Source: Rhodothermales bacterium (GTDB lineage Bacteria; Bacteroidota; Rhodothermia; Rhodothermales; VXPQ01). Taken from it: DNA of 64,000 nucleotides. The stretch spans positions 2,313,584 to 2,377,583 of the forward strand of contig OX638293.1 in the NCBI GenBank assembly GCA_951812335.1, in the 5' to 3' direction. The position numbers were made by a program, and so were the translations under genes. Under the pieces are notes generated by a model. That model was not told the origin of the DNA. It did no database searches and saw nothing but the letters and a program-made list of their open reading frames with translations. Below are positions 10,666 to 49,509 of this stretch, piece after piece (the first letter of the stretch is position 1; each line of letters begins with the position of its first letter).

Positions 10666-10918
10666 GGGTACTCTGATTAAGTCCGCCAAGTTCAGAGACT
10701 GAAAGGGATGCGCCGGCAAGGATGACGAAGCAGTGTTGCAGACCCCACATAATGAGGAATGACGCGGCCAGCGTGCTTCTTCCAGCCTCCCGAAGGACTC
10801 TTCACGCCCGCACTGCCCCGAATCCGCAGCGTTTCCCGCTAATTCCGACGATGCAATTATAATATCTTTTACGTACGAACGTGAAGCGCCGATCGAGGCG
10901 GTTTTGATCAGAGTATCC
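10666..10918 (+). mobile_element. Full copy A of ~253-bp MITE-like structured repeat
   Basis: Ends GGGTACTCTGATTAAGTCCGC and GCGGTTTTGATCAGAGTATCC; homologous to copies at 20171, 21907, 30568 and 49254. Confidence 0.85.
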
Positions 10919-20132: not shown

Positions 20133-20170
20133 CAGCGAAAATGTTTAGGCGGCGCACCAGCCGCGTTCAA

Positions 20171-20422
20171 GGATACTCTGATTAAGTCCGCAAAGCTCAG
20201 AGGCTGCGGGGGTGCGCCGGCAAGGAATGCCGAAGCAGTGCGGCAAGCGCCACATAATAAGGAATGACGCAGCCAGCGTGCCCCTTGCAGCCTCCCGAAG
20301 GGCGCGTCACGTCCGCGACACCCCGAACTCGCAGTGCTTCCCCTCATTCCGACGATGGAATCATGATGTCCTGTACTTGCGAACGTGACGTGCCGAGCGA
20401 AGCGGTTTTGATCAGGGTATCC
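20171..20422 (+). mobile_element. Full copy B of ~253-bp MITE-like structured repeat
   Basis: GGATACTCTGATTAAGTCCGC ... GCGGTTTTGATCAGGGTATCC; abuts the stop codon of the GWxTD gene. Confidence 0.88.
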
Positions 20423-21868
20423 TTAGCGACGATACAGCGCCGATTGCCAGTTGGGGAGCGATCGCTCGCCTGGCACACTGGAATGCAGTAACTCGAAACT
20501 ACCGAACCCGGTAACGTCCGCAAACACGAAAACAGATTGGCCATGCCCCGGAATGTTGTTGTACTGCCAGATTTCGTGGGGAACCGTTGCCTGATCGTAT
20601 AAATGCGGTTCGATGTCGTTAGGCAACCCGTACGTGATGACGACCCGACCCCGATCGCTTTGCCAGCCCGCCTCGATGTTCGATGTGTACCGGTCGTTGG
20701 CATACTGCACGCGGCGATAAAACCCCTCCTTGAATTCATTGACCGGCGTCATGGGCTGGGCATCGCGCTTTTGCCAGAAATCCATCAGAAAACGACGCCG
20801 GGCATCCAGTTCGGATAGCCTCCGCATTCGACGCCTTTCCATATCGTTCGCAATGAGGCGGGCATGAGCCATACCCTGTTCGACCTCATCTTCCGACATC
20901 TCCGCATAGGAACTCGTCTCGAAGTCGATTTCGAGAATGGCCGGATCCTCGCGGGATACTCCCGGATTGTACACGAAAAACTTCCGCGACCGTTCGACGA
21001 CCCCCTCGTTCTGCTCGTCGAGCAGCACCATGTGGAACACATACGATCCTGTAGGCAGTCCGCCGGTATCGAAACTTCCGACAAGCACATCGGGGGATCT
21101 GACCGTGCGATCTAAGCGGTTCTCCAGATCGGCGATCGGGAGCAGGCGATCGGCGTCCGCCACGTACGTGTAGACGATGTACGTATTTCTGTCGGAACCT
21201 ATTTCCCCTGCGCCATATGCTTCCGCATAGTAATACATGCGACGCAAACCCTCACCGAACAGACGATTGGGACTGGGATGGACAAGGAGACCGTTTTTGA
21301 AGAAGGGATCGTTTCGGCGAGCGTTCGGCGCAATGCCGGTAGCCAGCGTAATGTCCGAAAGCGCCGGGGCGCCGTCCGGTTCGAAGCGACCCACCGGGAA
21401 CGCTTGCCGTATTCGCAGACCGGGCCGGGCAGGCATATCCGGAACGGTCAGGTGCAGCACATAGTCGTCGGGCGGTACGGCGGAGCGCATCTGATGCGTA
21501 AAATAGTGCCCGGAATGCATCCCGGCGGTGTCGGGAAGCGCAAAGCGCAGCACCGTGGAATCGGCCCACACGGGCGCCGCCCGGGTTTCGCCGGTATCCG
21601 TCGCGGCACCGGGAGCAAGTTCGAGGCGCAGTGGCAAAGACGCTACGAAACCATCGGCTTCGGCAGCCTCGAAATCCAAGGAAGCCGCCTCGACGCCGAT
21701 ATACACCTCAACGAGGGACACCGCTTCGTCGTACGCGAAGGCCGCATAATCGACATCCATCTTCACCGGCGCATGTTGTGCACGGGTACTACCGACCAGA
21801 AAACCGAAGGAGGCAAGCAACGCCATGCCTGTTCCGGCGGAAAAGATTGCTTTTCGAAAACCGATCAT
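20423..21868 (-). CDS. GWxTD domain-containing secreted protein
   Basis: Signal peptide; DFWQKRD, YRRVQYAN, GWQSDRGRVVITYGLP, EIWQY and FVFAD. Confidence 0.92.
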   Translation of the reverse strand: MIGFRKAIFSAGTGMALLASFGFLVGSTRAQHAPVKMDVDYAAFAYDEAVSLVEVYIGVEAASLDFEAAEADGFVASLPLRLELAPGAATDTGETRAAPVWADSTVLRFALPDTAGMHSGHYFTHQMRSAVPPDDYVLHLTVPDMPARPGLRIRQAFPVGRFEPDGAPALSDITLATGIAPNARRNDPFFKNGLLVHPSPNRLFGEGLRRMYYYAEAYGAGEIGSDRNTYIVYTYVADADRLLPIADLENRLDRTVRSPDVLVGSFDTGGLPTGSYVFHMVLLDEQNEGVVERSRKFFVYNPGVSREDPAILEIDFETSSYAEMSEDEVEQGMAHARLIANDMERRRMRRLSELDARRRFLMDFWQKRDAQPMTPVNEFKEGFYRRVQYANDRYTSNIEAGWQSDRGRVVITYGLPNDIEPHLYDQATVPHEIWQYNNIPGHGQSVFVFADVTGFGSFELLHSSVPGERSLPNWQSALYRR

Positions 21869-21906: not shown

Positions 21907-22160
21907 GGATACTCTGATCAAAATCACTTCGCCCGGCACTTTACTTTCGCACGTAAACGATGTCATGATTCCATCGTCGAAATCAGCGGAAAACACTGCG
22001 GATTCGGAGCATCGCGATCGGAAAGCACCCTTCGGGAGGCTGCGAGGGGCACGCTGGCCGCGTCATTCCTTATTATGTGGCGCTTGCCGCACTGCTTCGG
22101 CATTCCTTGCCGGCGCACCCCCTGCAGCCTCTGAGCTTTACGGACTTAATCAGAGTATCC
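21907..22160 (-). mobile_element. Full copy C (reverse orientation) of ~253-bp repeat, with perfect 4-bp CTAT direct repeats
   Basis: TIRs GGATACTCTGAT / ATCAGAGTATCC; CTAT at 21903-21906 and 22161-22164. Confidence 0.9.
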
Positions 22161-30567: not shown

Positions 30568-30821
30568 GGATACTCTGATTAAGTCCACTTCAATCGGCAC
30601 TTCACTTTCGCGAGGACAGGACATCATGATTCCATCGTTGAAATCAGCGGCAAACATTACGGATTCGTGGCGTCGCGGGCGTGAAGCGCCCTTCGGGAAG
30701 CAGAGAGGGGCACGCTGGCCCCGTTATTCCTCATTATGTGGGGCCTGCCACACTGCTTCGTCATTCCTTGCCGGCGCACCCCTCTCAGCCTCTGGTCTTT
30801 GCGGATTTAATCAGAGTATCC
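30568..30821 (-). mobile_element. Full copy D (reverse orientation) of ~253-bp repeat
   Basis: Both ends read GGATACTCTGATTAA; flanks TAAA and TGAA; internal homology to the other copies. Confidence 0.88.
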
Positions 30822-32143: not shown

Positions 32144-32185
32144 GGATACTCCGATCAAAACCGCTTCGATCAGCGCTTCACGTTC
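32144..32185 (-). repeat. Partial copy H: right terminus only of the ~253-bp repeat
   Basis: GGATACTCCGATCAAAACCGCTTCGATCAGCGCTTCACGTTC is the reverse complement of the element's right end. Confidence 0.8.
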
Positions 32186-32832
32186 TATCGATACTCCTCG
32201 ACACACAGCGTGCGGACGTACCGCTTGGCTTCCCGTTCGTCGTTGGTGGCCACGACCACGATCGCGCCAGCTTGCAGTCTGGCCTCGATGACGGCGGATA
32301 TCATAAAGCGGCCTTCTCCGTCGAGATGCTCGTTCGGCTCGTCCAAAAGCAGCAGCGGCGGATCGACAAGCAGCGCCGCCGCCAGTTTGACGCGCTGCAC
32401 CATGCCGGACGAGAACGTGGAGACCCGGTCGTGCATGCGACGGGCCAGCCCGACGGATGCGAGCGTCTCCTCGATCCGCTCCTCCTTGTTCGCAAGGCGG
32501 CGCGCCCGGGCAATAAACCGCAAATTCTCCCGGGGAGAAAACCCTGCGTATACATTCACGTACGGCGCTACGAGGCCGGCATACATGGGATGCGCTTCCT
32601 GCGCCAACCCGACCCCGTTCACGCGAAGCGAAACGGTTCCTTCGCTCGGCGACATCACTCCGGCCAGAATGCGAAGCAAGGTGGACTTGCCGGACCCGTT
32701 GACGCCGGTCACGGCAAGGCGCTCTCCGCCGGATAAGGAAAACGAAAGCTCCCGGAAAAGGAGTCGCCTGCCGAACCGGCGGGCGACGCCGCGTACGTCC
32801 AGAACCGGCAGGGCATCCCGGGACTGCATCAT
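32185..32832 (-). CDS. ABC transporter ATP-binding protein, CcmA-like
   Basis: Walker A GVNGSGKST, signature FSSGMVQR and Walker B LLLLDEP. No permease adjacent. Confidence 0.88.
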   Translation of the reverse strand: MMQSRDALPVLDVRGVARRFGRRLLFRELSFSLSGGERLAVTGVNGSGKSTLLRILAGVMSPSEGTVSLRVNGVGLAQEAHPMYAGLVAPYVNVYAGFSPRENLRFIARARRLANKEERIEETLASVGLARRMHDRVSTFSSGMVQRVKLAAALLVDPPLLLLDEPNEHLDGEGRFMISAVIEARLQAGAIVVVATNDEREAKRYVRTLCVEEYR

Positions 32833-40083: not shown

Positions 40084-43000
40084 TCAATGCAATATGGATA
40101 TCTCGACTCCCGGACGGGTGGTGACGCCCGGCCCTTCGAACTCGATCCGATCGAACCGGGCCACCGTGCCCCTCTCGGGCCCCTCGAACACGACATACAG
40201 ATCGTGCGCTCCTTCCGGGGCTTCGATCGGAAGTGAGTATGACACCCAGTGAATGATGGGCGGTCCGTCCTCGCGCTCCTCAACAGGGGATTCTTCGGGA
40301 GGCGCAATAGCCGTTTCCGTCAAAATCGGCCCGGCGGCGGCGTCCAATCTTACCTGTACGGTTCCCTCCGCTTCGGGTACGAGGTATAATGTGAGCGCAT
40401 CGACGCCGTGCAGATTCATGGTGGAAAACGACACATACTCCGCATTCCCCAGTTCGACATATACCTCGGTCTCGTCCGGAAATTGGGGACGCTGGCGATT
40501 GCCAGTAATAACCAGGTTGTCACCCTCGGAGGCTGAACGGTTTTCCGCCTGCACCACGTTCGGGTACAGCATCACCTCGTCCGACGACGTAAGCGCGGGC
40601 GTACCCGAGTCCGTGTAACTTGCCCTCAGACGTACGTACCGGTCGATGATATACGGCCTGTGGGTAGGATCGGGCACTACGTTGAACGCTCCGAGATTGC
40701 CCCGGTGCATGTGCAGGGGATGTTCATGGGTGTCATGGCCAAGGAACGGTTGCAGGGTAACGCGCGAACCCGGGCTGACCAGCGCACCGTCTTCCGCATC
40801 GAATACATCGACTACATAGGGCGCCGGTTCGTTCAGCGGCACAATCCCGCCGAACGGCGGCCATGCGATGGATACCTCGGGCGCCGTGTTGCCAGCGGTG
40901 ACCGTTACGTTCGCTTCGGATGTCATCCCTTCGTCATCCGTCACTGTGAGACGCACCGTCCAGGCGCCGGACTCGGCAAAGGTATGCTCAACAGTAGCCG
41001 TTTCGGCATCCGGAGCGCCGTCCCCGTCGAAATCCCAGGAAAAATGCAGATCGCCCCCGTTACGGGATGCAGAAGCCGAACCGTCGAATGCAACGGCGAG
41101 CGGCGCCGGACCGGACATGGGCGCCGCACCGGCCACCGCTTCCGGCGGACGTTTTTCGTTCCCATGGTAATCGATGCGCACGAGCTGCCCGTCGCGGTTC
41201 TGCCCCCAGAATTCCTGACCCCACTCCAGCACATATAGCGTCTGGTCCGGCCCAAGCGCAATATCGACCGGGCGGATGTACGGAATCTCGGGAGTGAACG
41301 CCGTGATCTCCATGGCGTCCCCGTTCTCGTCGTTGAGTACTTCCTGAATCCAGTTGCGCGCCCATTCGAACAGGATCACCTTGCCGTCATAGTATTCGGG
41401 AAGCGCATGAGGCCCGGCTATCTCCGGATCGTAACGATAGACGAATCCGGGGGCCGCCGACATGCCGCCTGCGCCCATTTCGGGGAATGCTTCCGACGGA
41501 CCGTAACTGTAATATATCCAGGCCGGTTGTGCAGGAGGAAGTTCGCGCAGCCCCGTGTTGTTCGGAGAATCGTTAACAGGATTCTCCGGATCGAACCAGT
41601 CGCCGTATGCCTCCGTCTCGAAATTCAAATCGCGGTACGGCGCATTCGCTCCGACGAAATAGGGCCAGCCGAAAAATCCGGGCGTCTTCGCCTGTCCGAA
41701 TTCCTCCATCCCCTGCGGCAATTTGTCTTCGACATACTGATTTCCCGGCCCCACATCGCCCCAGTAGAGCCAACCTGTTTCCGGATCTACCGTATAGCGC
41801 CACGGATTCCGGTGTCCCATCGTGTAGATTTCCGGACGGGTGAGCGGATCGTCGTCCTCGAACAGGTTGCCTCCGGGAATTGTGTACGAACCGTCCGGCT
41901 GCGGGCGAATACGCAGGATTTTCCCGCGCAGGTCGTTCGTGTTGGCCGTGGTCCGTTGCGCATCGTAGTACGCACGGCCCGGACGTTCATCGGTACGCGG
42001 AGCGCCCCCTCCTGTGTTGTCGCCCGTGGACAACCACAGGTTGCCGTCCTTGTCGAAATGGAGTTCTCCGGCGCTATGGCAACAGATCTCGCGCTGCATG
42101 AATACCTCCAGCACAATGACCTCGCTCGCCATGTCCAGTTCGTTCCCCCGCATGGTGAACCGCGACAACCGGTTGGGATCCTGACTCAAGGGCATGTAAT
42201 ACAGGTAGACCCAGTTGTTTTCCTCGAAATTCGGATCGAGCGCAATTCCCAACAGACCGTCCTCGATTTTCATGGAGGTCGGAATCCAGCCTGCGAGAAC
42301 CGTCGACTCGGTGGACGGGTCCCATATCTTGACCGTTCCGTCGCGTTCGATCCAGAACACGCGCCCGTCGGGGGCTACCTCCAGTTGCATCGGATAGGTC
42401 GTATCGTCGTCGAGTACGACCTCTTCGTACGATCCTTTCAGCGTAGGGCCGACGTCCCCGTCCACGCGGCCCGCCGTCCATAGAATGGCCTGGAGCAAGT
42501 GCTCGCGGAACATCGGCTCCTCGTAGCTTTCCGAGGTATGTCCGCCGCCGGTATAAAAAGCGCGTCCGCCGTCGTACTCATGCGCCCATACGATCGGGTG
42601 ATCGTCGCTCATGGTACCCCCTTCGTAACTTTTCTCGACGAGGGTGGCCAGCACGTGCACATTGCCGCGCGGGTTCGCCTTGTAATTGTACCATTCGTCC
42701 GTGCGCGCCCAGCGCTCCGGTAGATGAGCCGTGGCGGGAAACGTCCTATCGAGCACCGCGATATCGGCCCCTTGAATGTGCGGGTGACTATCGAAATAGC
42801 CCCCCGCAAGTTGGCCGTACCAGGCCCAGTCGTATTCGGTATCCGCTGCGGCATGTACGCCTGCATACCCGCCGCCTTCCTGGATGTACCGCTCGAAGGC
42901 CGCTTGCTGCTCGTCATTCAGCACATCGCCTGTCGTGTTCAGGAACACTACTGTGCCGTAGTCGGCCAGATCCGGCCAGACGAACGCCGTATTGTCTTCC

Positions 43001-43310: not shown

Positions 43311-44216
43311 TCAGTCCAGACTGACATCCCCGTCCACGCGGCCTGCCGCCCACAGAATGGCCTGGAGCAAATGCTCGCGGAACAGCGGCTCCTCGTAGCT
43401 TTCCGAGGTATGCCCGCCGCCGGTATAAAAAGCGCGCCCGCCGTCGTATTCATGGGCCCATGCGATAGGATGATCGTCGCCCATCCTGCCTCCCTCGTAA
43501 CTTTCTTCGACGAGCACGGCCAGCACATGGACATTGCCGCGCGGGTTCGCCTTGTAATCGTACCATTCGTCCGTGCGCGTCCACGTCTCCGGAAGATGCG
43601 CCGTGGCGGGAAACTCCCGGTCGACTACTTCGATATCGGCTTCCTGAATGTGCGGATGGCTGGCGAAATACGCGCCCACAAGCTCGCCGTACCAGGCCCA
43701 ATCGTATTCGGTATCCGCCGCCGCATGGATGCCGACATACCCGCCGCCTCCCCGGATGTATTGCTCAAAGGCCGCTTGCTGCTCGTCATTCAGCACATCG
43801 CCCGTCGTGTTCAGAAACACCACCGCGCCGTAGCCGGCCAGATCCGGCCAGACGAACGCCGTACTGTCTTCCGTGTGCGTGACCGAGAAACCGTTCTCTT
43901 CGCCGATCTCCCGAAGCGCCTGGGCGCCATCCTCGATAGAGCGGTGACGGAACACCGCCGTTTTGCTGAAAACAAGGACGGACAGATCGAGCGTGTCCGG
44001 CGCTACGGCATGGACATCCACCGCAGCCGCGCCCACCGCAACGGCGTCGTACTGCTCGTCGCTTTGGTCCTGTTCGTCGCTCCGGTCCTGTGCAACAGCC
44101 GGTTTCCCGACAAGGGCCGATCCTGCCGCAAGCAGGCCTGCGAGGAAAAAGATTGCGGACAAGCACGTGGCATGTCCTCGCCGTACCGATTCTTCGTTCT
44201 TCATAGTGTTATCCAT
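43311..44216 (-). CDS. Secreted stand-alone ThuA domain protein, paralog of the downstream gene's N-terminus
   Basis: About 86% aa identity (manual count) to the ThuA domain of 40084-43260; similar signal peptide. Confidence 0.88.
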   Translation of the reverse strand: MDNTMKNEESVRRGHATCLSAIFFLAGLLAAGSALVGKPAVAQDRSDEQDQSDEQYDAVAVGAAAVDVHAVAPDTLDLSVLVFSKTAVFRHRSIEDGAQALREIGEENGFSVTHTEDSTAFVWPDLAGYGAVVFLNTTGDVLNDEQQAAFEQYIRGGGGYVGIHAAADTEYDWAWYGELVGAYFASHPHIQEADIEVVDREFPATAHLPETWTRTDEWYDYKANPRGNVHVLAVLVEESYEGGRMGDDHPIAWAHEYDGGRAFYTGGGHTSESYEEPLFREHLLQAILWAAGRVDGDVSLD

Positions 44217-47600: not shown

Positions 47601-47645
47601 GGATACTCTGATTAAATCCGCGAAGTTCAGAGGCTGCGAGGGGTA
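47601..47645 (+). repeat. Partial copy F: left terminus only of the ~253-bp repeat
   Basis: GGATACTCTGATTAAATCCGCGAAGTTCAGAGGCTGCGAGGGGT. Confidence 0.82.
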
Positions 47646-49253: not shown

Positions 49254-49509
49254 GGATACTCTGATTAAGTCCGCAAAGCTCAGAGGCTTGCGAGGGGCGG
49301 GCTGGCAAGGAGTGACGAAGCAGTGTGGCCTGTCCCCCACACAATGAGGAATGACGCGGCCAGCGTGCTTCTCGCAGCCTCCCGGAGGGCGCGTCACGTC
49401 TGCGATGCCCCGAATTCGCAGTGTTTCCCCTGATTCCAACGGTGGAATCATGACAACCTGTACTTGCGAACGTGACGCGCTGAGCAAAGTGGTTTTGATC
49501 AGAGTGTCC
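49254..49509 (+). mobile_element. Full copy E of ~253-bp repeat
   Basis: GGATACTCTGATTAAGTCCGC ... GTGGTTTTGATCAGAGTGTCC. Confidence 0.88.

Follow-up and report, generated by a model that had tools for sequence, protein, structure and literature searches.

A MITE with IS5-type ends has reportedly been described in Porphyromonas gingivalis. Multi-hairpin architectures with compensated stems are a feature of IS200/IS605 derivatives and of REPINs; in REPINs, compensatory change preserves the stems because the fold is required by the mobilising enzyme (RAYT is a Y1 HUH transposase). The bcr1 repeat of the Bacillus cereus group keeps a cruciform-like fold by compensatory base changes and is transcribed (PMC3184786). 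Correia/NEMIS elements in Neisseria and ERIC/IRU elements in enterobacteria, both abundant between genes, are MITEs whose RNA forms long hairpins (PMC3184786; PMC10969869). As a rule, MITEs carry the ends of a resident IS, lie between target duplications that erode over time and give transcripts with stable folds (PMC10969869).

Here we analyse a ~254-bp repeat in a 64-kb window, the whole stretch of DNA examined, from the genome of an uncultured member of the Rhodothermales. The repeat is, with near certainty, a non-autonomous transposon, a MITE of IS5-group type, because it shares its ends with an IS, has a TTAA-type target duplication of 4 bp and is polymorphic for insertion. It is a DDE-type MITE whose interior as well as its ends shows a pairing constraint that survives a phylogeny-preserving test.

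A genus-restricted repeat family

Positions 20171-20422 (+ strand) of the window hold one of five full copies of the repeat, copy B, which the family HMM matches over its full length (positions 1-254). The others are copies A (10667-10918, +), C (21907-22160, -), D (30568-30821, -) and E (49254-49509, +). There are also three partial copies, all of them solo ends: two left ends comprising family columns 1-44 at 328-371 and 47601-47644, both on the + strand, and one right end comprising columns 212-254 at 32144-32186 on the - strand. Repeat comparison within the window and the family HMM agree with the repeat family and copy coordinates given in the initial annotation.

The host genome (G000) is one contig of 2,686,407 bp with a G+C content of 58.3%. 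It returned 271 matches to the family HMM, about 120 of them full-length, which together cover 43,278 bp or 1.6% of the DNA. Mean pairwise identity among the distinct copies is 82% (range 69-99.6%). Solo ends and half copies of the MITE are numerous genome-wide, and the P1 domain described below (columns ~45-125) is wholly missing from four genomic copies (for example C1:62434-62596).

A 21-nt end pattern has matches in at least nine Rhodothermales-labelled MAGs at species level. A longer end pattern gave 12-212 matches per genome in all 12 genomes of the genus and none in seven genomes from other genera of the family; a reversed control pattern also gave none. The repeat family is thus restricted to one genus within the uncultured Rhodothermales. 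The MITE appears to break short-read assemblies, since many end matches in the fragmented assemblies G001 and G007 lie ~110 nt from a contig end.

The element contains no transposase gene, and a frame-by-frame stop test revealed no other coding capacity: a frame on the - strand is open throughout in 110 of 155 copies, yet substitutions that create stops are depleted to an equal degree in each of the six frames (ratios 0.32-0.75), and a coding role was rejected.

Other repeats were seen in passing. A second, unrelated family of ~145 nt adjoins a MITE copy at C1:1139316-1139460 and has dozens of copies, 90-92% identical, in G002, G006, G010 and G003. At C1:1401389-1403210, two inverted left-end fragments of the MITE (110 and 57 nt) bracket an 1822-bp segment with a 490-aa membrane transporter-like ORF, an arrangement resembling a composite transposon. 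Within the window, two 300-nt direct repeats unrelated to the MITE (42451-42750 and 43323-43622) are 88% identical and lie 872 nt apart.

Ends, target sites and parent insertion sequence

All copies of the repeat start with GGATACTCTGATTAAGTCCGC and end with GCGGTTTTGATCAGAGTATCC, so that the ends form inverted repeats. In copy B the left terminal inverted repeat, which is also the 5' arm of the terminal stem, lies at 20171-20191 (+ strand; GGATACTCTGATTAAGTCCGC), and one end of a 1171-bp IS5-group IS present in sister genomes has exactly the same first 15 nt. The right terminal inverted repeat, or 3' arm of the terminal stem, lies at 20402-20422 (+ strand; ...GCGGTTTTGATCAGGGTATCC). Read as its reverse complement (GGATACCCTGATCAA), it agrees with the other IS end, GGATACTCTGATCAA, in 14 of 15 positions, and most copies carry the exact end. 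The MITE family and the 1171-bp IS thus have in common the two parent ends, GGATACTCTGATTAA and GGATACTCTGATCAA. The inverted ends of the MITE that match the IS measure 15-21 nt; the sequence sharing itself is limited to ~15-17 nt per end, and the interiors are unrelated.

Copies of the 1171-bp IS with these shared ends include L093:1288-2458 and positions 756-1926 of both L094 and L101. The IS is present in 12-13 copies in each of two genomes of the genus and in one copy in a third, flanked by 4-bp duplications (TTAA, TAAG, ACAT). Its transposase is encoded by a single ORF of 315 aa (L093:1354-2298) with a DDE_Tnp_1 domain (PF01609, E=1.7e-29) and an N-terminal DUF772 domain (PF05598, E=7e-21). 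This pair of domains is the IS5-group architecture, and judged by its predicted protein the parent IS is therefore placed in the IS5 family, IS5 group. The MITE would be moved in trans by the DDE transposase of this IS, a step that we draw from the shared ends, the target duplication and the insertion polymorphism.

A genome-wide search of the host genome found no copy of the 1171-bp parent IS. Two candidates for a resident parent were rejected: paired family ends in the host genome enclose ordinary host genes, and the sole DDE_Tnp_1 match (C1:636241-637010) is a frameshifted IS5-family element with different ends. The numbers of IS and MITE copies are uncoupled across genomes: G002 has 13 IS copies and only 12 MITE end matches, G000 has no IS and 164 end matches, and G004 has 212 end matches.

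The target of IS5 is YTAR, and the 4-bp duplications of the MITE and the IS lie at YTAR-like sites. Across the MITE family the duplication is 4 bp with the consensus TTAA; 39 of 116 copies (34%) retain it without mismatch, and in 72 of 116 at least three of the four bases agree. Around copy B the left duplicate has decayed to TTCAA (20166-20170) and the right one to TTAG (20423-20426), and the empty site of relatives reads ...gcgTTAAcgacg..., with a single TTAA. Both duplicates of copy B have changed though relatives keep a clean TTAA and the adjoining flank is well conserved. Guide-like targeting was also considered and rejected: the mean longest match of an element's interior to its own flanks is 7.53, equal to that to the flanks of other copies (7.53).

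Insertions are polymorphic between species. Among 41 copies of other species whose two flanks could both be mapped to the host genome, 27 sites are empty in the host. In the opposite direction we examined 18 host copies, the five of the window and 13 drawn at random. For copies A-D and at least eight further copies of these 18, the site is contiguous in the congeners searched, and an occupied site was found for none of the 18. All 11 congeneric genomes have an empty site where copy B lies in the host; the sites of copies C and D are empty in six congeners each, and that of copy A in G002, G006 and G009 and, but for an additional 25-46 nt, in G005 and G010. At the orthologue of the copy B site, the more distant genomes G001 and G008 carry a right-end fragment of the element of 28-44 nt (L171:2351-2394, L173:1474-1501); this spot may have been hit there independently.

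A multi-helix fold with compensatory changes

RNAalifold was run on 155 distinct copies, and consensus helices were drawn from 109-155 copies. The predicted consensus consists of a terminal stem (columns 1-21/234-254), P1 (30-52/103-125), P1b (69-74/81-86) and P2 (132-148/210-226). P3 (columns 176-182/189-195) is absent from the alifold consensus and is supported by pair counts. The interior of the element is thus a set of nested inverted repeats. In copy B, all on the + strand, the terminal stem proposed in the initial annotation, 20171-20191/20402-20422, coincides with that of the consensus. P1, also proposed, extends to 20200-20221/20272-20294, and the apical hairpin P1b lies at 20238-20255. 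P2, originally read as 20301-20312/20383-20394, can be extended to 20301-20317/20378-20394, and P3 agrees with the family fold as TCATTCC-GACGAT-GGAATCA at 20344-20363. A proposed CCC-GAA-GGG hairpin is predicted in part, as a CC/GG closure of the GAA loop; it has no more than 2 bp, and its columns are near-invariant, so it carries no covariation evidence.

Changes on both sides of a pair are seen in every helix. Pair 5:250 of the terminal stem is AU in 120 copies and GC in 25. The covarying pairs of P1 are 36:119, 37:118, 41:114, 42:113 and 44:111; the compensation claimed for this helix is real, with 37:118 read as C-G or A-U (CG 68, AU 52, AG 23 in the family). In P1b, 70:85 is UA in 134 copies and CG in 18, and 69:86 is AU in 82, GU in 46 and GC in 26. 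The compensation claimed for P2 is likewise borne out: 137:221 is U-A in copies A, C and D and G-C in B and E (family UA 78, GC 19, GA 10), and 141:217 is CG or UA. Copy C, which had been cited as a further case in P2, has one compensated pair there but also one C.U mismatch. In P3, 177:194 is G-C or A-U as claimed (GC 93, AU 29, GU 15, AC 8), but the P3 of copy A, listed among the examples, contains a C.C mismatch.

For a statistical assessment, the 3' partner columns were reshuffled 2000 times among helix pairs of the same consensus type. Every column is left intact in this procedure, and phylogeny is therefore preserved in the null. (Same-branch co-change z-scores over all column pairs were too noisy at low counts, and the permutation test was used instead.) The alignment holds 705 non-canonical cells compared with 1032±25 after shuffling (minimum 919), and 303 canonical cells changed on both sides compared with 66±18 (maximum 145). 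Pairs with at least two such double-changed cells number 24, against 8.8±2.1 (maximum 17), and double changes that keep a canonical pair within one branch of the tree number 54, against 13.4±3.9 (maximum 33). None of the 2000 shuffles reached the all-helix values, and the same holds for the internal helices together and for the host-genome copies alone.

Taken singly, the helices differ in strength. The double-change measures were reached by 0-2 of 2000 shuffles for the terminal stem and by 0-3 for P1. In P1b, with 15 same-branch double changes against 1.7, they are also beyond the null (0-3/2000), but the non-canonical count is not (137/2000). P3 has 68 double-changed cells against 27±7.5 (0/2000), and P2 is weakly beyond the null (5/2000 for cells; the other measures are not significant). 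In a G-test with APC over ~31,000 column pairs, helix pairs took four of the top 20 places (0.05 expected) and six of the top 50 (0.12 expected); subfamily structure is strong, and most top ranks are held by non-helix pairs of subfamily-diagnostic columns. Partner permutation and G-test together confirm that covariation exceeds chance and shared descent: as the initial annotation had proposed, pairing is actively maintained, and inheritance within subfamilies does not account for it.

Explanations for the maintained pairing

On balance we lean, if only slightly, towards a constraint that acts on the mobile element itself. It would operate in the lineages that keep transposing, and probably on folded DNA, whether as extruded hairpins, a cruciform or a transient single strand. 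The fold would place the two transposase-binding ends side by side or preserve the element as a good substrate; it would not be a service rendered by an inserted copy to neighbouring genes. We know of no experiment or precedent for an IS5-type transposase that needs an internal fold, only the ends being known to be required. Inserted copies, for their part, appear to decay regardless of pairing or strand. One diverged same-site pair (G000 copy C1:2516305 and L109) shows 19 one-sided differences, one two-sided non-canonical difference and no compensated one. Same-site copies across species show 41 single, four double non-canonical and one double canonical difference (46 in all), where only ~2 compensated differences are expected at this low divergence. 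Double changes within a single branch exceed the null on internal branches (18 against 3.6±1.7) as well as on terminal ones (36 against 9.8±2.9); the excess on terminal branches is not cleanly predicted by selection confined to the mobile phase.

An alternative that we regard as possible, though unlikely, is that the fold is that of an RNA made from the + strand of the element and that pairing is selected at the RNA level for element or host, in a stability element, terminator or small RNA like those of bcr1, Correia and ERIC. Transcription of bcr1 together with its compensatory changes (PMC3184786) and the common folding of MITE transcripts (PMC10969869) would fit such a role. Both strands fold (alifold -151.8 for + and -127.3 for -), and MFE favours the + strand in 128 of 155 copies (-116.3 against -107.9 kcal/mol; z -7.0 against -5.3). 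On the consensus helix diagonals there are six G.U and one C.A. G.U is also the more frequent intermediate at nine of the ten pairs that show both Watson-Crick types, and pairs 41:114, 42:113, 69:86, 16:239, 44:111 and 45:110 form GC/GU/AU series with almost no AC. This asymmetry of consensus and intermediates hints at a strand-specific constraint (RNA or single-strand). One of the consensus wobbles, however, U.G at 13:242, is the T/C difference between the two IS ends and thus inherited from them.

Other mismatch counts speak against an RNA-level role. With the + strand structure, G.U outnumbers A.C by ~4:1 (974 against 233); as a strand signal this excess is an artefact of using pairs predicted on the + strand, and it vanishes with strand-neutral pairs (271/171 for pairs common to both strands, 1079/966 for their union). 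Derived events at pairs with a Watson-Crick consensus, compared with a mutational baseline for G.U and A.C built from unpaired columns, are at that baseline: changes to G.U and to A.C number 194 and 149 on terminal branches (p=0.33) and 48 and 42 on internal ones (p=0.75). Orientation is unbiased with respect to co-directional gene pairs (+ strand sense in 27, antisense in 38; p=0.21), to replication (+ strand on the leading strand in 52 of 120 copies) and to the genome strand (60/60). No Rfam family reaches its gathering score in the window, the only sub-threshold match being sR14 (14.4 bits, E=0.16), which is noise. Nothing in the orientation, Rfam or mismatch tests favours a cis-acting mRNA role, and the structured ncRNA or mRNA stability element suggested in the initial annotation found no support in them, derived changes showing no G.U preference; its other suggestion, a role independent of orientation, is consistent with the unbiased orientation data.

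Template switching is known to create and maintain hairpins, and compensation could in principle be made by mutation without any selection, through template switching at quasi-palindromes or arm-to-arm gene conversion. Derived mismatches that are symmetrical between the strands, folds on both strands and an excess of same-branch double changes that extends to terminal branches would all suit this account, which we nevertheless judge improbable. Same-branch double changes are not clustered in neighbouring pairs (2 against 0.9±0.9, p=0.22), and the signature of multi-nucleotide template switches was therefore rejected. Many G.U, A.C and other mismatches persist among the 705 non-canonical cells, diverged same-site copies show almost exclusively one-sided changes, and some compensations are transversions: GC to UA at 36:119, and UA to GC at 137:221 with the GA intermediate still present.

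Sites occupied in two species bear on what happens to copies once inserted. Thirteen sites are occupied in both the host genome and G010 (OX638295). At seven of them (C1:2140767, 1075593, 1714942, 2422898, 684013, 404821 and 1688584, compared with L108, L115, L111, L129, L117, L081 and L005, respectively) the element is 98-99.6% and the flanks 88-96% identical. The element differs there at 1-5 of ~254 positions, 17/1778 in total (~1%), against ~7-8% in the flanks, where mismatches begin 2-30 nt from the element ends and show no gradient towards it. Element and flanks are both ~100% identical at three further sites; at two, element identity is 96-97% and flank identity ranges from 85% to 99.6%, and at one the element is as diverged as its flanks (86.6%). 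Twelve of the 13 sites gave a match in G002, G006, G005 and G009 and are empty there, except one with a different copy in G005; these four genomes are as close or closer in the flanks, and the closest genome varies by locus.

Our preferred reading of this contrast is heavy recombination, in which imports from donors without the insertion would overwrite the flanks up to the element boundary and leave the element itself. The element would then reflect how young the shared allele is, and the flanks the divergence of the population. It seems doubtful that inserted copies are instead kept by the host as functional structured elements, as purifying selection over the whole 254 nt would imply; if true, some selfish MITE copies have undergone domestication and are now constrained in sequence on a scale comparable to structural RNAs. 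The contrast between element and flank across species could serve to probe recombination in these populations. Two sites carry very different copies between species (C1:2448750 and L024; L007:1044 and L086:5174), with 43 and 63 mismatches and flanks 90-92% identical, which implies recurrent insertion at a hot spot or replacement by another copy.

Shared descent of subfamilies as the only source of the apparent compensation is very improbable. Subfamily-diagnostic columns outside the helices do covary strongly, but phylogeny-preserving permutation never reproduced the observed values, helix pairs are far over-represented in the top 20 of the G-test, and the diagnostic changes of one subfamily of 8-12 copies fall in the partner pairs 19:236, 36:119, 141:217 and 16:239. 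Finally, we give next to no credence to the hairpin substrate of a single-strand HUH/Y1 transposase that the initial annotation had offered as a further role, on the pattern of IS200/IS605 derivatives or REPINs: the multi-hairpin architecture and its compensated stems would suit such an enzyme, but the terminal inverted repeats, the 4-bp target duplication, ends identical to those of a DDE IS of the IS5 group, the lack of any match to Y1_Tnp (PF01797) in the host genome and the unbiased orientation to replication contradict it.

The pairing constraint on the interior of this MITE makes a narrow question testable: is the fold of the passenger DNA needed by an IS5-type transposase, or for the element to persist? 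The main value of the analysis lies in annotation, as it describes an abundant MITE family, restricted to one genus of uncultured Rhodothermales, together with its parent IS.

Comparison with known systems

REPINs of the REPIN/RAYT system lack terminal inverted repeats and target duplication and depend on a Y1 HUH enzyme, which has no match in the Rhodothermales genome. Correia/NEMIS and ERIC/IRU elements owe their folding mainly to long terminal repeats, and they are documented to affect mRNA processing and stability. The Rhodothermales MITE adds three internal helices to its terminal stem, and its orientation shows no bias of the kind that would suggest an mRNA role.

Like IS5-family MITEs, the Rhodothermales element is non-autonomous and uses ends and a 4-bp target (YTAR-type) borrowed from an IS5-group DDE transposase, and P. 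gingivalis, too, belongs to the Bacteroidota. The sequence of the P. gingivalis MITE is unrelated, and a covarying multi-helix core is notable in the Rhodothermales element.

The closest analogue is bcr1, likewise a mobile repeat without coding function that is dispersed and has direct duplications at its flanks, a patchy distribution between close strains and a compensated fold of several stems (PMC3184786). It differs in phylum and sequence, is shorter (~155 bp against ~254 bp), makes a duplication of 5 bp rather than 4 bp, and has no known parent IS with the same ends, whereas such a parent has been identified for the Rhodothermales MITE. By this analogy the two would work alike, with the Rhodothermales MITE lying outside the bcr1 family because of its 4-bp duplication and its restriction to one Rhodothermales genus. 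The Rhodothermales element adds a new member to the IS5-group MITEs, and its compensated internal fold is a known though uncommon property of small non-coding mobile elements.
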